In this document: positions 8,115 to 58,772 of the stretch, one piece after another
Numbering within the stretch: the first letter of the stretch is position 1
Layout of the letters: the number at the start of each line of letters is the position of its first letter
From: Candidatus Woesearchaeota archaeon
GTDB lineage: Archaea; Nanobdellota; Nanobdellia; Pacearchaeales; GW2011-AR1
Reading direction: 5' to 3'
Length of the DNA stretch: 58,772 nt
NCBI GenBank assembly: GCA_964493655.1
Contig: CAZBOY010000001.1
Coordinates: 1 to 58,772 of the forward strand
Made by a program: the position numbers and the translations under genes
The notes under the pieces: model-generated
Told to the model about the DNA's origin: nothing
Database searches by the model: none
What the model saw: the letters and a program-made list of their open reading frames with translations, nothing else

Positions 8115-8145
8115 GGATTTTATTAATCTTCAAAAGATTTCTGCT

Positions 8146-8250
8146 TAGGAGCTGACTAATTTAATCTTTATAGTGCCTGATGAAATTTTTCCATATCTTA
8201 AATAGGGTTGGGAAAAATTTCCGCAGAAGCTTCCTAAAGCATTATCACTA
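8146..8250 (+). repeat. nested-palindrome hairpin element, copy 1
   Basis: Stem 8182-8192 GAAATTTTTCC pairs with 8211-8221 GGAAAAATTTC; 18-nt loop starts ATATCTTA. Right flank is CGCAGAAGCTTCCTAAAGCATTATCAC. Confidence 0.75.
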
Positions 8251-8320
8251 AAACTACATCGAGTATTTTGCCAATTCATAAACCCTAATTTTTATTAATA
8301 ACTAACTTATCTTCAACTGG

Positions 8321-8425
8321 TTAGCTGACTGTTTTTTGTTGGTGGTTGTTGCGGAAATTTACCCTTATCTTATTTTTTGTTGGGGGTAAATTTCACCAGA
8401 GGTTTTGAAGAGCACTAAGCTTAAT
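8321..8425 (+). repeat. nested-palindrome hairpin element, copy 2 (in tandem with copy 1)
   Basis: Stem 8354-8364 GAAATTTACCC pairs with 8384-8394 GGGTAAATTTC; loop starts TTATCTTA. Flanks are TTAGCTGACTG...TTGGTGG and TTTTGAAGAGCACTAAGC. Confidence 0.75.
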
Positions 8426-8693
8426 ACTAACACAAAAAGATTTTTTAAATAATAAATCTCATAGAAAACTTTCCTTTAAACTTAGTCAGAAGGATTATTT
8501 ATTTATTCAGTTTTTGGTCTTTTGGAGGGATGTCTTTGGGAGAATCATTAACTTGTGCTGTGGGTTAATTGGGTTAATTCATCGAAATTTAGTAGTGCTA
8601 TAAATTTATATATGTAACTATTTCTAAATTAAAACAGAAAATGGAACTGACAAAGGAATTTATGATAAATAGTATTGAAAGGAGGTATAATAA

Positions 8694-18911: not shown

Positions 18912-18983
18912 GCCTCGGTAGTTAAGTGGCTATAACACGACCCTGTCGCGGTCGAATCCCGGGTTCAATTCCCGGTCGGGGCG
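18912..18983 (+). tRNA. tRNA-Asp: tRNA-Asp (anticodon GTC), 72 nt, no encoded CCA, no intron
   Basis: Manual cloverleaf. Acceptor GCCTCGG/TCGGGGC (two G-T pairs). D stem GTTA/TAAC. Anticodon stem CGACC/GGTCG with loop CTGTCGC. T stem CCGGG/CCCGG with loop TTCAATT. Confidence 0.9.
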
Positions 18984-30158: not shown

Positions 30159-30560
30159 TTAATGCTTATCTGGACATTTTAGGACAAGAGGACTAATAGA
30201 AAGAATCCCTTCAATATCTTTTAAATGGTGTTTAATAGCACCAACAATCCCAACTAAAGAAGCTCTTAGTTCTGTTTCAGGAACAAATAAATCAACTAAA
30301 AGATGTTCTAAATATTTTCTAAAAGCTTCATCAGGGGTCCTAGCTAAAAAAGTACTATTATCCTCGGGTCTATCTGGATTCCTATATTTAACTACATAAC
30401 CTTTTTGAGAAGAATATGTTTCTAAAGAAACATATTCTTTAGATAATAAACCACTTTCAACAGCCTCGTTTATAGGAATAATCTCTAAACTAACTCTCTC
30501 CCCTACTGCACCTTCTAAGTTTCTAAAATATTCTGTTTTTAGTCTTAGTTCTTCTATCAT
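30159..30560 (-). CDS. hypothetical protein
   Basis: 133-aa ORF. No motif recognised. Confidence 0.55.
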   Translation of the reverse strand: MIEELRLKTEYFRNLEGAVGERVSLEIIPINEAVESGLLSKEYVSLETYSSQKGYVVKYRNPDRPEDNSTFLARTPDEAFRKYLEHLLVDLFVPETELRASLVGIVGAIKHHLKDIEGILSISPLVLKCPDKH

Positions 30561-30730
30561 AAAAAACTAATAAAATCTGTATATATAAGCATTATTGTAA
30601 TTAATAACAACAATAATGATGTGGAATTCACAAATGAGTGATTATGAAAAAGTTATTTTTTCAATCTTAAACCATGAATAGATAAAAATTTATTAATTAT
30701 AAAATTGCTAATAGAATTATAGAACATAGA

Positions 30731-30822
30731 TTATTTATCTTGGCGGCTTTCGCGGAAATTTATCCCGAGTATTTTAAGATAAGGATAAATTTCTTCAGGA
30801 GTTTTGCAGAGCAGTAGCATAA
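30731..30822 (+). repeat. nested-palindrome hairpin element, copy 3
   Basis: TTATTTATCTTGGC GGCTTTCGCG, then stem 30755-30765 GAAATTTATCC pairing with 30783-30793 GGATAAATTTC, then TTCAGGAG TTTTGCAGAGCAGTAGCATAA. The loop ends TAAGATAA. Confidence 0.8.
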
Positions 30823-30866
30823 ATCTCATTTAAAGATTTTTATTAGAGTAATAAAGGATATATATT

Positions 30867-31557: not shown

Positions 31558-31651
31558 GCCCTTTTATTAAGTTTTGATTTAAAAGCTTTATTGTGGTGGA
31601 TTATTTAATCATTCAGAAAAGGTTTAAAAACCCAAGTTCAAATTAATAATT

Positions 31652-32092
31652 ATGGCATTTAAAATTAATGTGTCTCATGAAGGAAAGACTGCGAAGTTTG
31701 AAAATGAAAATGAAGAGTTAATTGGAAAATTAATTGGTGATAAAATTGAGGGGGATTTGATTGATGCTTCCTTGAAGGGTTATGAACTTGAGATTACTGG
31801 GACAAGTGACAAGGCAGGGTTTCCTGGATTTGCTGACGAGATTGGTACTGGTTTAAAGAGGGTTTTGCTTACTTATGGTAAAGGGCTTCATGTAAGGCCA
31901 AAAGGGGATAGAAAAAAATCAGACAAGCCAAAAGGATTGAGGTATCGAAAAACTGTAAGAGGTCAAGAAATTTCAGAAGCAACTATTCAGATTAATACTA
32001 AGGTTATAAAAGAAGGTGGGAAGAAATTTGTAGAATTGTTGCCTAAGAAAGAAGAAGTTGAGACTGAAAAATCTGAAGAGAAAAAAGAATAA
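31652..32092 (+). CDS. rps6e: ribosomal protein eS6 (S6e)
   Basis: MAFKINVSHEGKT...GYELEITGTSDKAGFPG...GLRYRKTVRG is typical of S6e. Confidence 0.9.
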   Translation: MAFKINVSHEGKTAKFENENEELIGKLIGDKIEGDLIDASLKGYELEITGTSDKAGFPGFADEIGTGLKRVLLTYGKGLHVRPKGDRKKSDKPKGLRYRKTVRGQEISEATIQINTKVIKEGGKKFVELLPKKEEVETEKSEEKKE

Positions 32093-32109: not shown

Positions 32110-32592
32110 ATGGAACTTGAAGAATTATTAGAAAGACAATTGGAAAGAGCAATAAGATTAATGCTGTTAAAAAATTTAAATGCTCCCCAAAGAGTTATAG
32201 AAATAGAGCGAAGGTTATGTAGAGAATCTAATGAAGATATTGAACCTTATGAAAAAAAATTAGGTGAAAAAGAACTTGCTGAGATTAGAAAAAGAGTTTA
32301 TACTGAATTTTTAGAAGCAGAATTAAGGTGTGAAAGGGCAAAATCAAATTCTTCATATTGTCCGGTTTGCAGATGGAAGTATTTTTATCCAGATAGCAAG
32401 GAAGTCCCGGAGGAAGTTTTAAATCAATACCCATTTTTTTGTTCTTTGAATCCAGGAAGACCTGAAGAGATAATCCAAGCTAATATTAAGGGAAAAGCAA
32501 TGACTTGTGGAAATTTTAGTGAACTCTATCGTATACCAAAGAAGGCTGAAGAAATAGAAATCTTAGAAGAACTTTTGTATGCTGTTGGTTAG
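32110..32592 (+). CDS. hypothetical protein with scattered Cys (YCPVCRW...FFCSLNPG...MTCGNF)
   Basis: 160-aa ORF followed by hairpin copy 4. Confidence 0.55.
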   Translation: MELEELLERQLERAIRLMLLKNLNAPQRVIEIERRLCRESNEDIEPYEKKLGEKELAEIRKRVYTEFLEAELRCERAKSNSSYCPVCRWKYFYPDSKEVPEEVLNQYPFFCSLNPGRPEEIIQANIKGKAMTCGNFSELYRIPKKAEEIEILEELLYAVG

Positions 32593-32660
32593 AATTTATT
32601 TCTTGTGATGACTATAAAAAAATTTAAATTTATTAATCTAATAAATCATCGCTTTGGGGG

Positions 32661-32758
32661 AATAGGTTATTTATCTTGGTGGCTTTTACGGAAATTTATC
32701 CTTGTCTATAACATACTTGGGATAAATTTCTTCAGAAGTTTTGCAGAGCATTATCATA
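32661..32758 (+). repeat. nested-palindrome hairpin element, copy 4
   Basis: GGTTATTTATCTTGGT GGCTTTTACG, then stem 32691-32701 GAAATTTATCC pairing with 32720-32730 GGATAAATTTC, then TTCAGAAG TTTTGCAGAGCATTATCATA. The listed ORF 32605..32787 across it is probably spurious. Confidence 0.8.
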
Positions 32759-32851
32759 GCCTTAATACAAAAGATTTGTTTGATTAATAAATTGAGAAAA
32801 ATTAAAACCCACAAACTTAAAAACTAATAATTCTAATTATAAAAGAAGAAG

Positions 32852-33472
32852 ATGGGATTTTTAATGCAAGCAGTTGAAAATATCGCAAGTTCTATTTCCA
32901 GTTATGGAATCTTTACAACCCTTTTCTTTTTTACAATCATAATTTCTCTTTATGGAATTTTTGTTTATTATTTTTATAAAAATCTTGCAAGAAGAAATCT
33001 TATAAATTTGGACCTTAACCAATACAATACTACTGAACATCCTATGCTTGGAAAATTTTTTGCATTTCTCTTTTATGTGTTAGAATATCTGATTATTCTT
33101 CCAATTTTGACATTTATCTGGTTTGCAGTTCTAGCTATCTTTTTAGTTGTGTTATCAGAAATAGATAATGTTGGAACAATCTTGATGATTTGTGCAGCGC
33201 TCATCGCTTCTGTGCGAGTTGTATCTCAAATAAGTGGACAGCTTTCACAAGACCTTGCAAAAATTGTTCCTTTCACATTATTAGGTTTATTTATTCTTAA
33301 TCCAGGATTTTTTGATTTAACTGCATTAGTAAATAGATTTTCACAAATACCTGTTTTAATCAGCCAAATTCCTATTTATATTTTCTTTATAATTGGGGTA
33401 GAGATTTTAGCGAGGGTTATTGGATTTTTTGAAAGAATGTTTAGGACGCGAGGCGAGATTGAAGAAGAATAA
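32852..33472 (+). CDS. small polytopic membrane protein, unknown function
   Basis: 206 aa with several hydrophobic helices. Bracketed by hairpin copies 4 and 5. Confidence 0.65.
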   Translation: MGFLMQAVENIASSISSYGIFTTLFFFTIIISLYGIFVYYFYKNLARRNLINLDLNQYNTTEHPMLGKFFAFLFYVLEYLIILPILTFIWFAVLAIFLVVLSEIDNVGTILMICAALIASVRVVSQISGQLSQDLAKIVPFTLLGLFILNPGFFDLTALVNRFSQIPVLISQIPIYIFFIIGVEILARVIGFFERMFRTRGEIEEE

Positions 33473-33529
33473 TTTTTGATTCTCTGACTAAAGTTAATTT
33501 ATTAATTAAATTACTTCTAAAATTGTGAG

Positions 33530-33629
33530 AAGTCTATTACTTCCCTTGGTAACTTTTGAAGAAATTTAGCACAATAATTTTTTTAAGATGGTGCTAAATT
33601 TCCGCAAAGGATTTTTAGAGCAGTAAAGG
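33530..33629 (+). repeat. nested-palindrome hairpin element, copy 5
   Basis: CCCTTGGT AACTTTTGAA, then stem 33561-33572 GAAATTTAGCAC pairing with 33591-33602 GTGCTAAATTTC, then CGCAAAGGA TTTTTAGAGCAGTAAAGG. The loop ends TAAGATG. Confidence 0.75.
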
Positions 33630-33743
33630 TAAAGCTCATCTCAAGAATTTTTGTCAATTAATAAATTTGAGAATTTATACCCAATAAATCAAAATTCAAC
33701 AAACATCCACAAACCTTTAAAACCCCCCCGCATTCTAATTTTC

Positions 33744-34952
33744 ATGGAAGAAAAAATAGACATCTCTAAAATTGAGACATTAAATGTTGGGATAGTCGGG
33801 CATATTGACCATGGAAAGACAACCTTGCTTTACAAACTTAGCGGGAAATGGGCTGATACACATTCTGAAGAATTGAAAAGGGGGATTACAATTAAACTTG
33901 GTTATGCAGATGTTATAATTAGAGATGAAGATGGGAATTTGACTACTGATAAAAAAAGTAAAGGCAAACCTATCCGTTACATAACTTTTGTAGATGCTCC
34001 TGGACACGAGATGCTTATGGCAACAATGCTTTCTGGTTCTGCAATTATGGATGCTGCGATTTTAGTTATTGCTGCAGACGAAGGGATAAAACCCCAGACA
34101 AAAGAACATCTAATTGCTCTCCAGGCTAAGAAAATTAAAAATATAATAATTGTCCAGAATAAAATTGATTTGGTTTCTAAAGAAGATGCTCTAAAAAATT
34201 ACCAAAAAATTAAAGAGTTTGTAAAGGGAACTATTGCAGAAAATTCTCTGATAATTCCTGTTTCTGCTCAGCAAAATATTAATATTGACAAAGTATTGGA
34301 AGAACTCTGTAAAATTAAAATTGAAAAAAAGGATTTGGAAAAAAAACCTCTTTTCCTTATTGCGAGAAGTTTTGATATTAACAAACCTGGGACTGATCTT
34401 AATAATTTGCATGGGGGGGTTTTGGGGGGGGCTTTAAAACAAGGAAGTTTAAAAATCGGAGATGAAATTGAAATCAAGCCAGGTTATTCTTATAAAAAAC
34501 AAAATAAGTTTTATTATCACCCAGTTAAATCCAAAATTGTTTCAATGCAAAAAGGAGAGTATCCAATTGAAGTTGCAACCCCTGGAGGAAGCCTAGCAAT
34601 TGAGACAGAGTTAGACACAAGTTTGACAAGGGCAGATTCTTTGTCTGGTTGTGCTGTGTCCTATGTTGGAGAACTCCCAGAAATAAGTGAGGAAACTAAA
34701 ATTAAATTTGATTTATTTGGAGAAGTCTTGGGAACTGCCGGGCACGAGGCTGTTGCAGAGTTGAAGACAAATGAAATGCTGATGCTAAGTATAAACACCA
34801 CAATAACTGTTGGGCAGGTGAAAAAAATAAAAGATAAAGAGGTAGAATTATCTTTGAAAATTCCTATTGTGCCTTTGAAGGGGACTGGTGTTGGAATTGC
34901 GAGAAATATCAAGGGGCACTGGCGGTTGATTGGTTTTGGGGAGATTATTTAA
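33744..34952 (+). CDS. eif2g: translation initiation factor aIF2 gamma subunit
   Basis: MEEKIDISKIETLNVGIVGHIDHGKTTL, DAPGHE, NKID. I prefer ATG 33744 over the listed TTG 33651, whose extension overlaps intergenic repeat sequence. Confidence 0.9.
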   Translation: MEEKIDISKIETLNVGIVGHIDHGKTTLLYKLSGKWADTHSEELKRGITIKLGYADVIIRDEDGNLTTDKKSKGKPIRYITFVDAPGHEMLMATMLSGSAIMDAAILVIAADEGIKPQTKEHLIALQAKKIKNIIIVQNKIDLVSKEDALKNYQKIKEFVKGTIAENSLIIPVSAQQNINIDKVLEELCKIKIEKKDLEKKPLFLIARSFDINKPGTDLNNLHGGVLGGALKQGSLKIGDEIEIKPGYSYKKQNKFYYHPVKSKIVSMQKGEYPIEVATPGGSLAIETELDTSLTRADSLSGCAVSYVGELPEISEETKIKFDLFGEVLGTAGHEAVAELKTNEMLMLSINTTITVGQVKKIKDKEVELSLKIPIVPLKGTGVGIARNIKGHWRLIGFGEII

Positions 34953-35007
34953 ATTATAAAGTGACTACAAACAAAAGATTTATAAATAATGATTTATCTT
35001 AATTCTT

Positions 35008-35814
35008 ATGGAAATTAAATTAAATGTTGTCGAACCAAATCTGATTGTTAGTGGAGATGGAATCTATTTGGGTTTGGATGGAAAAGATATTGTTCCTGTT
35101 GGTTTAGATGTTGATTGGATTGTTATGAATCATATCGGAGAATTAAAAGTAAGCAAAGGTGATTTGGAAACTATTGGTGGAGGAAAGGGTAAACAAAATG
35201 GGGAATTTGATACACCATTAAATGAATATTTACAGGAATTTAAAGCAAGATTTAATTCAGATTTTTGTTTTAGTATTACAGATGACTCCACAAGATTATT
35301 TGGATTAAGCTATGTTGTTAATGCTGCGACTCATGAATTACCTTGGGAGGCTTTTTTTTGGAAGGAACTTGCAGGAATTATAGCCAATCCTGATGGGTTT
35401 AATAGAAATTGTGATAATAACGAAAAGAAGTTGAAATATATTAGGATAGACAGAAAACGGACTTTTGAAGAGATAAAAAAATTACATGATGAATTAGAGC
35501 CTAAAACTCCTGATAATTTTGCAGGAATTAGTATTCTTCCAGGGCGATTTCCTTATGATGATAAAACTTTAGTAGTAAAATATTTAGCTCATGTAACTTT
35601 GGGTCAATTAAAAGCAAAAGACAGAACACAATTAGAATTAGCAAAATCTAAATTAGTGGAAAAATTAAAAAAAGTTAAAGGTCCTGCACTTTCTCTTGAT
35701 GCTCCTTGTCTTCAGCAGCAGATTTGGAGATTATACTTTGATGCTCCAAGATTAGTCAGGGATTATGGAGATGTTTTAAATTCTTTTCCAAGATTTTTTA
35801 AATTAGACCCCTGA
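35008..35814 (+). CDS. hypothetical protein
   Basis: 268-aa ORF with no motif recognised, followed by hairpin copy 6. Confidence 0.6.
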   Translation: MEIKLNVVEPNLIVSGDGIYLGLDGKDIVPVGLDVDWIVMNHIGELKVSKGDLETIGGGKGKQNGEFDTPLNEYLQEFKARFNSDFCFSITDDSTRLFGLSYVVNAATHELPWEAFFWKELAGIIANPDGFNRNCDNNEKKLKYIRIDRKRTFEEIKKLHDELEPKTPDNFAGISILPGRFPYDDKTLVVKYLAHVTLGQLKAKDRTQLELAKSKLVEKLKKVKGPALSLDAPCLQQQIWRLYFDAPRLVRDYGDVLNSFPRFFKLDP

Positions 35815-35851
35815 TTATTTTTATTAATCCCAAAACTATTCATCGACTTAT

Positions 35852-35950
35852 GAGCTGACTGATTTGTCTTGGCAACTCTTGAAGAAACCCAAACTTATCT
35901 TATATGATTGTTTGGATTTCCACAAAACCTTTTCAGAGCATTATGATAAA
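35852..35950 (+). repeat. nested-palindrome hairpin element, copy 6
   Basis: GAGCTGACTGATTTGTCTTGGC AACTCTTGAA, then stem 35884-35894 GAAACCCAAAC pairing with 35910-35920 GTTTGGATTTC (one C.A mismatch), then CACAAAACC TTTTCAGAGCATTATGATAAA. The loop starts TTATCTTA. Confidence 0.75.
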
Positions 35951-36043
35951 CACTCCACAAAAAGGTTTATTAATTAATAATTTAATTTTTATTATCTAGA
36001 TTATTTTCAAAACATATTTATACCTTAAAAACAACAGAATAAT

Positions 36044-36484
36044 ATGGAAAAGGTGGTGAAACAAAAAATACCAGAAGCAAATGCCGAGGGAGCTATCCCG
36101 AAAATATTAATCCCGAGTGGAAAATTGATTTCTGAAATTTTTGGGATAATCTTTATTATAGTTTTGTTGTGGAGCATCCTTGGGGGAAACAATTGGGAGC
36201 TGACTACTTCAAATCTTTCAATAGAAATTGGATGGCCGTGGTCTTTTCTTTATCTTGAAGAGAGTTATGATGGTGGACTTCCGATAAACATATTAAATTT
36301 AATTTTGGACATGCTTGTTTATCTTGTGGCTTCGTATATAATTGCAGTGGTGTTTACAGTTATTTGGGATTCATTTAGAGGACCTCCAAAACCAATTTCA
36401 GAGCAAGATAAAAAAACTATGAATAATTTGAGGAAGTTAGCGGGGGGGGGGAAATTAATTATTAATCCTAAAAAATTCTCTTAG
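36044..36484 (+). CDS. small membrane protein, unknown function
   Basis: 146 aa with 2-3 hydrophobic helices. Bracketed by hairpin copies 6 and 7. Confidence 0.6.
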   Translation: MEKVVKQKIPEANAEGAIPKILIPSGKLISEIFGIIFIIVLLWSILGGNNWELTTSNLSIEIGWPWSFLYLEESYDGGLPINILNLILDMLVYLVASYIIAVVFTVIWDSFRGPPKPISEQDKKTMNNLRKLAGGGKLIINPKKFS

Positions 36485-36488
36485 GAGA

Positions 36489-36579
36489 TTTATGCTTAAT
36501 GCTCTGAAAAGCTTTTGTGGAAATTTATCCTTACTTTAATATACTTGAGATAAATTTCTTCAGAAATTGCCAAGGTTAC
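36489..36579 (-). repeat. nested-palindrome hairpin element, copy 7 (outer flanks inverted on the + strand)
   Basis: TTATGCTTAATGCTCTGAAAA GCTTTTGTG, then stem 36519-36528 GAAATTTATC pairing with 36548-36557 GATAAATTTC, then TTCAGAAA TTGCCAAGG. Lies between the convergent 3' ends of 36044..36484 and gyrA. Confidence 0.8.
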
Positions 36580-36632
36580 AATCATCAACCCCAAATATTA
36601 AAAATTTAAATTTACGAATATGTTGTCTTCTG

Positions 36633-39137
36633 TTAATCAACAACTTCAACAACATCCTTAATTCTTACTAAATCACTAACACTGTCTCCTTGTTGAAGTC
36701 TAATTATTCTAACTCCTTGGGTTGCCCTTCCCATAACCCTAATGTTTTTGATACTTGTTCTGATGACAATCCCTTTTGAGGTTGTTACAATGATATTATC
36801 ATCATCTTTAACTGACTGGGAATTTATCACTTCTCCATTTTTATCTGAGATTTTTATGTTTATCACTCCTTTGCCAGCTCGTGCAGTTAATCTGTAATCA
36901 TCTATCTTACTTCGCTTTCCGTAACCTTTTTTTGTAATTGTAAGTATTGAAAATTTGGCTTTTTCAGTTGGGATAACTTCTAAGGAAACAACAGCGTCGT
37001 TTTTGTTTAGTTTTATTCCAGTAACTCCATAAGATGCTCTGCCGATTGGACGAGCTTCTTTTGAATTAAATCTAATTGCCTGCCCGAGTTTTGTAACTAA
37101 TAAAACTTCCTGCCCTTCTTTTATTGGTTTAACTGTAATCAAGACATCATCTTTTCCCTCTAGGTTAATTGCTTTTATTCCACCTTTTCTTGGAGATGAA
37201 AATTGGTTGAATTCAATTTTTTTGATAATCCCTTTTTGAGTTGCCATTATTAGATAATCTTCAAATTTCTTTACTGCAATTACTGACGAAACTATTTCAT
37301 CTTTTAAAGAGAGGAGATTGATAAGGGCTTTTCCTTTTCCATATTTAGCAATTTCAGGTATTTCATATGCTTTAAGCCAGTGGACTTTTCCTTTATTTGT
37401 AAAGAATAATAAATAATCATGAGTTGAACAAGTTAAAATTTCTTTTACAAAATCTCCTGTCGCGAGTTCTGTTCCTTTTACTCCTCTGCCGCCCCGGTTT
37501 TGCTCTTTGTATTGCTGAAGGTCAATTCTTTTTGCATAACCTTTATCAGTGATTGTGACAACAACATCTTTTTTACTTATAAGATCTTTTTCTTCAAATT
37601 GTTTTACAGAACCTAAAACTGCTGTTCTTCTTTCATCACCATAATTTCTTTTTAATTCTGAAAGCTCTTTTTTTATTATCTTAAATATTTCTTCTTCACC
37701 TGAAAGAATTCTTTTTAACTCCACAATTAATTCCTTAAGATCTTTTTCTTCTTTTTTTAGTTTTTCAAATTCAAGAGAAGTTAATTGTTGAAGTTTTATT
37801 TCTAAAATTGCTTGTGCTTGTTTTATACTGAGGTTGAATTTAGATTGTAAATTTTGAGATGCCTCTGCTGTTCCCTTTGATTTTTTAATTAATCTTATTA
37901 TCTCATCAATATTTTTCTGGGCAATTAAAAGCCCTTCAACAATGTGGAGTCTTTTTTCAGCTTTGTCTAGCTCAAATTCAGTTTTTTTCCTGATTACTTT
38001 TCTTCGGTGGTTTACATAGGTTTGAATAATTTGTTTAAGATTTAATTGACGAGGTTGTCCTGCAACTAGTGCAACCATAACTCCGTCGAATCTTGTTTGT
38101 AATCTGGTGTATTTGAATAATCTGTTTATTGTAAATTTTGCATTTGCCCCTTTTCTTAAAACAATTACAACACGGACATTGCCTTTTGCAGATTCATCTC
38201 GGATATCGCACACATCAGGAAGTTTTCTGTCTTTTACTAAAGAAGCAATTTGCTCGACTAACTGAGCTTTATTTACTTGGTAAGGAATTTCGGTGATTAC
38301 TATTCTTGTTTTTCCTGAAGAATTTTTTGGCTCTTCAATTTTTGTTTTTCCACGAATTATAAGTTTGCCTTTCCCGGTTTTGTAAAGTTCTTCAATTTCT
38401 CCAGAAATATAACCTCCTGTTGGAAAATCCGGAGCTTGTATTTTTTCAATTAATTTATCTATTTCTATTTCTGGTTTATCTATGTAAAGTGAAATTGCGT
38501 CGCAAACATTATGGATGTTGTGTGTTGGAATATTTGTGGTCATACCTACTGCGATTCCTGATGCTCCGTTCAAAAGCAAGTTAGGAAGTTTTCCCGGCAA
38601 GAGTTCTGGTTCTTCAAGAGTGTTGTCAAAATTTGGAAGCATCTTAACTGTTTTCTTTTGAATATCCTTAAGAAGTTCTTCTGAAATTTTTGAAAGTTTT
38701 GCTTCGGTATAACGCATTGCAGCGGGTGGGTCTCCGTCCATTGAACCGAAATTTCCCTGGCCTTTTACTAACGGATATCTTAATGAGAAATTCTGGGCCA
38801 TTCTAACTAAGGAATCATAAAGCGCGAGGTCTCCGTGGGGGTGGAATTTACCCATTGTGTCTCCAACAATACGCGCTGATTTTTTTGTCTGCTTATTTGA
38901 CTGCAAACCCATCTCGTACATAGCCCATAAGATTCTTCTGTGAACTGGTTTTAATCCATCTTCGGCTGCAGGCAGTGCTCTTGAAACAATTACAGACATT
39001 GCATAATCAATATATGCTTTCCGCATTTCTCCAGATATTTCTGCATCAATCAGTTCTTTAGCTTGAATGTGCTTTTTCATTTCTTCTTTTTTCTTAGTAA
39101 GTTCTTCTGCTCTTTGGATGTCGTCTTCGGGGGTCAT
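36633..39137 (-). CDS. gyrA: DNA gyrase subunit A
   Basis: SVIVSRALP...[11 protein letters not shown], the active-site region [10 protein letters not shown], and C-terminal beta-pinwheel repeats. Confidence 0.95.
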
Positions 39138-44014: not shown

Positions 44015-44173
44015 TTTGTTTGTTAACCAATAGAACTAATCCTCCCTATTGGTCATTGGATAGTTAAGAAATAATAATTGGGTTTAAAAAGCTTTTGTTA
44101 TAATCTAAACAAACAAAAAACTAGCTTAAGGTTAATTTAAAATTTATTAATTGACAAAGACTCTTTGTGGGCG

Positions 44174-44274
44174 TTTATCATAATGCTCTGCAAAGCTTCT
44201 GCGGAAATTCTTCTAAATCTAAAATATGATGCGGAAGAATTTCTTCAAGTGTTGCCAAGATAAATAACTCCTAT
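44174..44274 (-). repeat. nested-palindrome hairpin element, copy 8 (outer flanks inverted on the + strand)
   Basis: TTTATCATAATGCTCTGCAAA GCTTCTGCG, then stem 44204-44213 GAAATTCTTC pairing with 44234-44243 GAAGAATTTC, then TTCAAGTG TTGCCAAGATAAATAACTCCTAT. Confidence 0.8.
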
Positions 44275-44315
44275 TAACCCTTAGAAAATATTTAGTTATT
44301 AATTAAAATATAAAA

Positions 44316-58034: not shown

Positions 58035-58772
58035 GATTTTGATAGGAAAGTTGGTTTTTTAATATTAACTAAAATGTGATTTAGAAAATTCCTAAAAATG
58101 ACATCCTCCGCACCCTAAAGGTTTGCCTTTGGGGCAAATCGCCTTCGGCGAGTGCGGTTTCCTAATACGCATGATGTTCTTCTTGGTTTTCAATATATCT
58201 TCTGACAACTTCTTCTTGCACAAAACCAACTGAAGATGCAAATTTTCCTCGACTCCATAAATGTCCTTTAGGATATCTCAACCTTGCTTTTGGATTTTTC
58301 TCAAAGAAAAGTTTTGCAGATAATCCTTTCAAGATTTGCAAAACTTTCGAAGCAGAAATATTCAAAGATACTTGAACTTCACAATGAACATGTTCAGGCA
58401 TTACTGACAAAACAATAATTTTTATGTTATGCAGCGACGCGGCTCTTCTGATACAAGCAGCACAAAGATTTTTCTGCTCTTCTTTTCTAAACATTCTGTA
58501 AGCGTATTTTGGTTTCCATTCAAGATGAAGCATCATCACTCCAACTGAATGAGCAAAATGTTGGTATTCATTTATTAAATTTTGTGTTTCCATTTTTCTC
58601 CATAGCATTCGCTGTTTTCAGTGAATGCAAAAGTTTATTTAGTTTGAGAAAGTCACAACTACATCGTGTGTTCAATGGGTTGCAACAAACCCATTGTTCC
58701 TAAAATTTATAGAAATAAATACTTTGTTAGGAGAACCCCATCCTAAAAGGATGGAGATTTCTTCTTAGTTAA
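58035..58772 (-). mobile_element. IS200/IS605-family element (tnpA only), boundaries undefined and cut by the window end
   Basis: tnpA flanked by stem-loops: compound hairpin 58108-58157 downstream; 58673-58696 (CAATGGGTT/AACCCATTG) and 58730-58764 upstream. Confidence 0.6.
58162..58608 (-). CDS. tnpA: IS200/IS605-family Y1 (HUH) transposase TnpA
   Basis: LHLEWKPKYAYRMF, HUH motif PEHVHCEV, C-terminal catalytic-Tyr region VVRRYIENQEEH. Confidence 0.9.
   Translation of the reverse strand: MLWRKMETQNLINEYQHFAHSVGVMMLHLEWKPKYAYRMFRKEEQKNLCAACIRRAASLHNIKIIVLSVMPEHVHCEVQVSLNISASKVLQILKGLSAKLFFEKNPKARLRYPKGHLWSRGKFASSVGFVQEEVVRRYIENQEEHHAY

Follow-up and report, generated by a model that had tools for sequence, protein, structure and literature searches.

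Is the alternation of short ORFs and hairpins between the eS6 and gyrA genes of this archaeon an array of captured gene cassettes, or do the hairpins and the ORFs have separate histories? We analysed as our window a whole contig of 58,772 nt, from a 713-kb genome whose assembly is 85% complete. We found hairpins at 32666-32755 (+), 33536-33640 (+), 35857-35959 (+) and 36481-36584 (-), where the original prediction had placed them, and established that each is the central third of an imperfect foldback element of about 167 bp. The locus begins with the ribosomal protein gene eS6 (31652..32092, +; Pfam PF01092, E 1e-25), followed by ORF 32110 (32110..32592, +; 160 aa), hairpin 4 (32627..32793, +; a full copy of 167 bp with a type B inner segment, 82.2 bits against the covariance model, CM), ORF 32852 (32852..33472, +; a multi-pass membrane protein of 206 aa) and hairpin 5 (33496..33667, +; a full type A copy of 172 bp, CM 81.9 bits). 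Beyond aIF2-gamma (33744..34952, +; Pfam GTP_EFTU and eIF2_C) come ORF 35008 (35008..35814, +; 268 aa), hairpin 6 (35818..35983, +; a full type A copy of 166 bp, supported by CM, 84.4 bits, and by folding), ORF 36044 (36044..36484, +; a small membrane protein of 146 aa) and hairpin 7 (36456..36604, -; type A, in the opposite orientation, CM 81.7 bits), which is located between the convergent ORF 36044 and gyrA (36633..39137, -), the 3' end of gyrA facing it. The last nine codons of ORF 36044 and its stop fall within the end of the hairpin-7 element. One more copy (30686..30860, +, ends approximate, core 30731-30828; type B inner segment; nhmmer 48 bits, CM 79.8 bits) separates ORF 30159-30560(-) from the small (-) ORFs that precede eS6; including it, five copies lie in 6 kb, and no cluster in the genome is denser (for 5 copies in 9 consecutive gaps, permutation gives P about 0.02). 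As had been described, ORFs 32852-33472 and 36044-36484 each have a hairpin on both sides, aIF2-gamma is followed by none (the spacer there is 55 nt), and the four interleaved ORFs have no recognisable function, being without a match in Pfam, NCBIfam and PHROG.

We then considered the proposal that each hairpin follows a lineage-specific ORF, which proved right for ORFs 32110 and 35008 and wrong for ORFs 32852 and 36044, since homologues of the latter two occupy the same position in numerous species, the sister species among them. Directly upstream of aIF2-gamma, the sister species carries a 61% identical homologue of ORF 32852; homologues of this ORF occur in 14 of 26 relatives, and in 23 of 80 species one is found in that same place. 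ORF 36044 has a 50% identical homologue adjoining aIF2-gamma in the sister species and one downstream of aIF2-gamma in 9 of the 80 species, followed in 8 of these by gyrA. With eS6 upstream of aIF2-gamma in 40 of the 80 other species, these data define a conserved backbone, eS6-(membrane)-aIF2-gamma-(membrane)-gyrA, that exists without hairpins and to which both membrane ORFs belong as ancestral members. ORFs 32110 and 35008 are independent species-specific gains in this backbone. No homologue of ORF 32110 was detected in 5.8 billion clusters, in 25 relatives or at the 80 aIF2-gamma loci, so that family and homologue searches alike leave it an ORFan; its slot in the sister species holds an unrelated 99-aa ORF with no similarity to it. 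ORF 35008 is an accessory gene whose family is sparse and uncharacterised, with 70 remote clusters of no more than 44% identity; a profile built from 40 homologues matched nothing in PDB or Pfam. The gene is absent from the sister species, where aIF2-gamma leads through an element directly to the ORF 36044 homologue, and no element accompanies its nearest homologue elsewhere. Each of the three variable slots at this locus, those of ORFs 30159, 32110 and 35008, adjoins a copy. Hairpin 7, lying about 20-50 nt past the gyrA stop and oriented as gyrA, follows this core gene equally. Two of the four ORFs are thus conserved in place in relatives without hairpins, an outcome that the original prediction itself had named as contrary to cassettes: the elements do not delimit inserted genes, and the two bracketed membrane genes are ancestral residents. 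A backbone of this kind, with fast-turnover ORFan slots, offers a reference for annotating such MAGs.

The elements themselves share a well-defined anatomy. Full copies measure 162-172 bp and end in terminal inverted repeats, AATTTTTATTAAT...ATTAATAAATT, which 41 copies carry with no more than 2 mismatches and which are of modest specificity because they are AT-rich and short. The two arms of about 85 nt are inverted copies of one another (65 of 92 positions identical between the left half and the reverse complement of the right half; score 33.5, shuffles 4.5 +/- 3.8). At the centre lies a perfect 11-bp stem with a loop of 15-18 nt (15-22 nt among copies), every stem is framed by an invariant GAAA...TTTC, and the internal loop of the consensus structure is a symmetric 2x2 one (AA/CG or CG/UU), a 3-nt bulge being absent. 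Stem pairing holds in 95% of cells, with a covariation of 0.43 versus 0.17 in shuffles, and stems are about 96% Watson-Crick. There are many distinct stem classes, such as ATCCAAAC/GTTTGGAT in 8 copies; within a class the stem is near-invariant and the flanks differ by about 20%. Pairwise identity between copies has a median of 59% and a maximum of 79%. The mismatches in the 11-bp stem, 7 G.U versus 5 A.C/C.A, reveal no strand asymmetry. Loop and inner segment occur in all four combinations of orientation. Polarity at the locus is not uniform, contrary to what had been proposed: hairpin 7 is inverted, and the inner segment of hairpin 4 is inverted relative to those of hairpins 5, 6 and 7.

The genome carries 63 loci by nhmmer and 57 by the covariance model, all intergenic, or about 85 per Mb. 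The sister species of the same genus (G001) has about 33 by the covariance model, which recovered copies that a BLAST-level search had missed; the same model found none in 59 other relatives, and among 80 further species no element lies beside aIF2-gamma. Copies show no significant bias for gap type (tandem 6.3%, convergent 9.0%, divergent 4.7%) and occupy 49 of the 191 gaps of at least 150 nt (26%). The distance to the stop codon is 28-29 nt, the same for either element end; start codons are never closer than 52 nt (median 73-83 nt), except in a single case of overlap. Element strand is associated neither with GC skew nor with gene strand (agreement in 27/49 and 24/49). Genes whose 3' end faces an element, which include TBP, gyrA and a RecJ-like DHH protein, have a Pfam match in 9 of 20 cases, exactly as random genes do (9/20); hairpins thus follow annotated and core genes at the frequency expected by chance, the other outcome put forward at the outset as counting against cassettes. 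Hairpins 4 and 5 are both missing from the sister species, where the orthologous gaps measure 49 and 100 nt, and in gaps occupied in both species the stem classes of the copies differ. Alignment of the two genomes gave no exact empty site. Metagenome contigs of other samples revealed no polymorphism and are uninformative on this point, because five or six of them are 100% identical across these hairpins (5 contigs for hairpin 4, 4 for hairpin 5).

We conclude that the family is probably a genus-specific, non-coding, MITE-like foldback repeat of about 167 bp, imperfect and now decayed, of which the neighbouring ORFs form no part. The elements are small, non-coding, multicopy and dispersed, bear terminal inverted repeats and differ in presence between related genomes, as MITEs do, and high MITE densities have been reported in some DPANN genomes (PMC11602168). 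MITE-like repeats had been the second suggestion of the original prediction, and for the hairpins it holds. Like the structured MITEs (Correia elements of Neisseria, enterobacterial ERIC, SM elements of Sulfolobus), these are short, non-coding sequences with terminal inverted repeats, present as dozens of dispersed intergenic copies in one taxon, which fold into a long hairpin and show clustering and nesting. Unlike them, they have no detected target-site duplication or partner transposase, and their copies are very diverged, with an almost perfect stem and with loop and inner segment in both orientations. The best signal for a target-site duplication was a 2-nt match in 13 of 41 copies versus 7.1 in permuted pairs, with nothing at k >= 3; age could have erased the duplication. 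A search for four transposase families in the 85%-complete assembly found no autonomous element with matching ends: an IS4/5-like DDE_Tnp_1 gene (C9) is broken by an internal TAG and has the unrelated TIR ACTATTTAAAT, the ends of an rve gene (C5) do not match the element, and TnpB was not found.

The repeat may have spread as selfish DNA into the few insertion-tolerant gaps of a compact genome, presumably those just beyond stop codons and no closer than 50 nt to a downstream start codon, and would now be old and apparently immobile. It occupies about a quarter of the long gaps in a 0.7-Mb genome and supplies one gene's last codons. Palindrome behaviour at the DNA level, through hairpin-templated repair or through recombination or conversion between arms and between copies, would best explain why the stem is near-perfect and why loop and inner segment show nested flips, and a past requirement for the hairpin in mobilisation may add to the upkeep of the stem. 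Selection on RNA is a less likely cause of stem perfection than such palindrome dynamics, although stems kept despite strong divergence of the copies could instead mean function. A perfect stem in very diverged copies is in any case relevant to palindrome maintenance in archaeal chromosomes. The flip/flop hairpins of the AAV ITRs (parvoviruses) offer a resemblance only, in that an asymmetric inner part would likewise occur in both orientations between fixed outer arms; unlike them, the elements here are chromosomal, dispersed and non-terminal, with no replication protein and no sign of hairpin-primed replication.

Were the stems functional, the family might be a domesticated module acting at the RNA or transcription level: it might terminate transcription in both directions or insulate genes, stabilise mRNAs as a 3' hairpin, or encode a small RNA with the TATA-like terminal repeat as promoter. 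The T5 run of the 5' terminal repeat follows stop codons at a median distance of 29 nt, element and upstream gene point the same way in 39 of 61 cases (P = 0.04), the family is kept in both species of the genus, stems remain about 96% Watson-Crick though copies are about 40% diverged, and the terminal repeat TTTTTATTAAT precedes a conserved GTGAGCTGAC block by about 25 nt, a spacing that would suit a promoter. We nevertheless regard such a module as unlikely. Both orientations relative to genes are common, with equal gene distances for either element end, and G.U pairs are not in excess over A.C in the stem; the presence of loop and inner segment in both orientations would alter any RNA. Moreover, the element is absent from 59 + 80 related genomes that have the same genes, just 26% of the long gaps are occupied, and the TATA-like repeat is unlike the genome's own promoter box, CACAAAnCTTTAAAA. 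No Rfam family was matched, an Rfam 15 scan of the window returning only a tRNA at 18912-18983.

Another reading, which we consider quite unlikely, is that the family is no dead MITE and depends on its hairpin in a way for which archaea offer no described example: it would be copied or repaired via a single-stranded fold-back intermediate, by a mechanism leaving no target-site duplication. If true, fold-back copying would explain why stems are near-perfect, why they fall into discrete classes and why nested flip/flop states persist in copies about 40% diverged. As a side effect, copies could act as seams where species-specific ORFs enter the conserved backbone.

Mobilisation of single-stranded hairpin DNA by a Y1 HUH enzyme of the IS200/RAYT type, as for REP/REPIN or PATE elements, would also account for the missing target-site duplications. 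The REP/REPIN elements (RAYT) and the haloarchaeal PATEs (derived from IS200/IS605) are, like the present family, extragenic palindromes arranged as an inverted doublet without target-site duplication, and this foldback architecture is accompanied here, as for REP/REPIN-RAYT, by a Y1 HUH gene: a Y1_Tnp gene is present at 58162-58608(-) (PF01797, E 1.5e-25), with a loosely core-like hairpin upstream (GAAGAAAT-stem-...TTCTCC). However, its product retains HVH but has Lys at the position of the catalytic Tyr (LWSRGKF vs LWTRSYF in 2EC2/2F4F), and the gene, present once in the genome, has no family members on its flanks, unlike in REP/REPIN-RAYT systems. The family model detects nothing at the TnpA ends even at E = 10, just a 19.7-bit match within the ORF, and we rejected a link to this IS200-type TnpA. 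The element is also far longer than REPs, with true terminal inverted repeats and no GTAG head. We therefore find this origin very unlikely.

It is more doubtful still that the palindromes are double-stranded binding sites of a dimeric DNA-binding protein (a regulator, nucleoid or segregation factor), with stem classes reflecting sequence-specific recognition. Stems that are near-invariant per class between flanks about 20% different, and the invariant GAAA...TTTC around each of them, would suit such sites; numerous stem classes, loops of 15-22 nt, the lack of a fixed distance to promoters and confinement to the genus do not, and no candidate protein was found.

Finally, next to no probability attaches to the reading with which we began, integron-like cassettes made of an ORF and a 3' hairpin, which a tyrosine recombinase would have captured at folded sites resembling attC. 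It draws on the element that follows each of the species-specific ORFs 32110 and 35008, on three tyrosine recombinase genes in the genome (PF00589) and on the occurrence of integrons in DPANN archaea (PMC9668308). As with integron cassettes and their attC sites, including the archaeal ones (PMC9668308), imperfect palindromes here lie between short ORFs, their outer parts being conserved and their paired centre variable. Unlike integrons, the elements have no R''/R' core sites, extrahelical bases, IntI or attI. We searched either strand for R'' (RYYYAAC) and R' (GTTRRRY) about 57-141 nt apart, and this pair occurs in 0 of 41 full copies (mean in shuffles 0.6); where attC would have extrahelical bases, the stem has the symmetric 2x2 loop. 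The suggested search for an IntI-like gene yielded XerA and two generic integrases, all on other contigs. The best of them, and the one Xer-like recombinase of the genome, is the housekeeping XerA (NF040815, 242 bits, cut-off 220), which scores 213 against the integron-integrase model TIGR02249, below the cut-off of 265, in a split match that skips model positions about 177-250, the IntI-specific insert. Besides, polarity is mixed, and elements are dispersed genome-wide and flank core genes at the chance rate. The two bracketed membrane ORFs are ancestral and conserved in relatives without any site, the nearest homologue of ORF 35008 occurs elsewhere without an element, and in the sister species an element follows aIF2-gamma yet no cassette ORF does. 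The claim of an integron cassette/attC organisation accordingly falls, which removes a tempting false "archaeal integron" from a DPANN genome and shows how palindromic repeats can be distinguished from attC.

Two smaller ideas were dropped. GA dinucleotides beside the stem had suggested a K-turn/L7Ae motif or an sRNA of the C/D or H/ACA type, which does not fit the symmetric 2x2 loop without a 3-nt bulge, the two orientations or the lack of an Rfam match; a GTGGAAA-like motif had suggested an origin-recognition box, and copies are dispersed over most contigs. Elsewhere in the window, two tandem copies (8117-8304 and 8289-8458, together 8117..8458, +) have one terminal repeat in common, and a further copy at 44141..44308 (-) is the top match to the family model (CM 91.2 bits).

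The hairpins between eS6 (31652-32092, +) and gyrA (36633-39137, -) belong to a genus-specific family of foldback repeats that has no relation to the ORFs beside them. All four predicted at this locus were recovered with their coordinates and strands, namely hairpin 4 (32666-32755, +, type B), hairpin 5 (33536-33640, +), hairpin 6 (35857-35959, +) and hairpin 7 (36481-36584, -), the last three being type A, and a fifth family copy (type B) lies at 30731-30828. The assembly (713 kb in 43 contigs, ~31% G+C, 85% completeness) has a coding share of 88%. An HMM made from four copies revealed 63 family loci genome-wide at E < 1e-3 (57 with a covariance model), all of them intergenic; the five local copies form the densest cluster in the genome (permutation P about 0.02 for 5 occupied among 9 consecutive gaps).

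Extending the alignment outward showed that the hairpin forms just the central part of a 162-172 bp element with ends AATTTTTATTAAT ... ATTAATAAATT. Its left half aligns with the reverse complement of its right half at 65 of 92 positions (score 33.5, against 4.5 +/- 3.8 for shuffles), which makes an imperfect foldback of the element as a whole. Its consensus fold has an 11-bp stem closed by a loop of 15-18 nt, with a 2x2 internal loop and 3 further pairs. Within the stem, an invariant GAAA/UUUC is joined by 7 variable pairs; pairing is kept in 95% of cells, with a covariation of 0.43 versus 0.17 in shuffles and at most 0.18 with slid partners. Discrete classes of stem can be told apart (ATTTATCC, ATCCAAAC, ATTCAACC and ATTTAGCAC, among others); within each, the stem hardly varies while the flanks are ~20% different. 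The internal loop is AA/CG in type A (hairpins 5, 6 and 7) and the inversion, CG/TT, in type B (hairpin 4 and copy 30731). The loop sequence, too, is found both ways round, and all four combinations of the two orientations exist. Such perfect stems and nested flips would result either from palindrome dynamics at the DNA level or from a mobilisation requirement in the past. One copy (C18:12895-13059) carries, in place of its loop, an ~85-nt insert with a GC-rich hairpin (CCCCTTAGGGG), which looks like a second repeat family nested inside the first; hairpins of a similar GC-rich kind occur after the TnpA gene described below and at the start of contig C29. A tandem pair of copies at 8117-8458 has one terminal repeat in common.

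The family was detected only in this genome and in G001, a sister species and the sole same-genus genome compared (33 loci by covariance model; assembly 59% complete). Scanned with the covariance model, 59 other genomes from the family and order yielded no copies, and neither did the 1.5-kb surroundings of aIF2-gamma in 80 further species. The copies are old, with a median pairwise identity of 59% (maximum 79%), and no target-site duplication is detectable. On five or six contigs of other metagenomes the same locus has 100% identity over hairpins 4 and 5, leaving no flip or presence polymorphism visible. We infer an old, selfish, MITE-like element that sits in permissive gaps. High MITE densities are already recorded in DPANN genomes (PMC11602168), and the foldback family therefore adds to a known kind. 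No partner enzyme was found among four transposase families searched for in the 85% complete assembly. Its one IS200-type Y1 transposase gene (TnpA; 58162-58608, -) retains an intact HUH motif (HVH) and has Lys aligned to the catalytic Tyr (LWSRGKF); the family model matches neither end of it, and the assembly yielded no TnpB. Just upstream of this gene is a ~150-aa N-terminal fragment of MFS type. Its contig (C1) ends in 55 nt that are also the first 55 nt of C2, making the two adjacent. The assembly also holds a rve-type gene and an IS4/5-type element (C9:5156-6611) with TIR ACTATTTAAAT, unrelated to the family ends; the DDE transposase of this element is broken by one in-frame TAG.

A role in transcription is the less likely alternative. 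The distance of an element to a facing gene 3' end has a median of 28-29 nt, regardless of which element end is nearer, and that to a facing start codon is at least 52 nt (one overlapping copy excepted; median 73-83 nt), so the promoter is spared. There is a weak tendency to share the upstream gene's orientation (39:22, P = 0.04), and orientation is associated with neither local gene strand nor GC skew. The 11-bp stem has 7 G.U versus 5 A.C/C.A pairs and is ~96% Watson-Crick, so nothing here points to selection acting on a single transcribed strand. As to permissive gaps, 191 reach 150 nt or more and 49 of these contain a copy; gaps with a copy have a median length of 280 nt versus 44 nt without, and occupancy does not differ significantly between tandem (6.3%), convergent (9.0%) and divergent (4.7%) gaps. 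Despite the missing tie to GC skew and gene strand, adjacent copies tend toward the same orientation (19/26 pairs on contigs with at least 3 copies), as in the runs ++++++-- on C1 and ------ on C19.

The original prediction also noted a resemblance to MITE-delimited insertions and took the ORFs as lineage-specific. Its four ORFs (32110-32592, 32852-33472, 35008-35814 and 36044-36484) indeed match nothing in Pfam, NCBIfam or PHROG. The order in G001 is aIF5B, an unrelated (-) ORF, a family hairpin, eS6, an unrelated 99-aa ORF, a homologue of membrane ORF 32852 (61% identity), aIF2-gamma (33744-34952, + in the window), a family element and a homologue of membrane ORF 36044 (50%), the last join crossing two overlapping contig ends; the counterparts of the hairpin 4 and 5 gaps are 49 and 100 nt long and element-free. 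Of the 80 other species, 40 have eS6 upstream of aIF2-gamma at a distance of up to 1.5 kb, 23 have the ORF 32852 homologue immediately upstream (11 of them with eS6 before it), and 9 have the ORF 36044 homologue immediately downstream, with gyrA(-) next in 8. Direct contact with aIF2-gamma, as the prediction proposed to look for, is made by eS6 in 12 and by gyrA in 3, all element-free. Because this order recurs, eS6-(membrane)-aIF2-gamma-(membrane)-gyrA is an ancestral backbone, with the bracketed membrane genes as old residents. Thus the repeat family may be MITE-like, but it does not delimit inserted ORFs, and lineage specificity holds for ORFs 32110 and 35008, absent from the aIF2-gamma loci of all 80 species, and not for 32852 and 36044, whose homologues hold the same positions where the element is lacking. 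ORF 32110 lacks homologues altogether; ORF 35008 is part of a thinly populated, uncharacterised family (70 clusters, identity at most 44%) matching neither Pfam nor PDB, and its nearest relative lies between the OapC and OapB genes of another archaeon with no element nearby. Three backbone slots (30159-30560, 32110-32592 and 35008-35814) hold non-homologous ORFs or none between the two genomes, which indicates fast ORFan turnover; each adjoins a repeat copy in the window genome.

Elements border annotated genes as well: in a random sample of 20 genes with their 3' end towards an element, 9 match Pfam (E <= 1e-5), among them TBP, gyrA, a RecJ-like DHH protein and a glycosyltransferase, and the rate for random other genes is equally 9/20. 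Flanking genes do not differ in length from the genome, so no preferential attachment to orphan ORFs is apparent. Integrons are on record in DPANN archaea (PMC9668308), which made a cassette idea reasonable, but every testable defining feature fails: unlike integrons, no family copy has attC core sites, the tyrosine recombinases of the genome are two generic integrases and XerA, which scores below the integron-integrase cut-off and has no IntI insert, none of the three being on C1, and the elements are independent of the ORFs; the model is rejected.

At 36456-36484 the end of the hairpin-7 element reaches into ORF 36044 and supplies the gene's final 9 codons (LIINPKKFS) together with the stop. 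Since the homologue in G001 has a different end, the original C-terminus seems to have been replaced by the insertion. A promoter-like box, (C)ACAAAnCTTTAAAAAC(C), stands ~20-45 nt ahead of the start codons of eS6, ORF 32852 and aIF2-gamma (31620-31650, 32805-32830 and 33700-33725) and is conserved in the sister species (G001, locus L011, 6215-6240 and 7940-7965). Despite 31% G+C, long G/C homopolymers (G7-G10, C7) occur in genes and a promoter region (34411-34432, 36443-36452 and 33723-33729), as possible slippage sites; the G10 run sits in ORF 36044, and the aIF2-gamma run is interrupted in the sister species.
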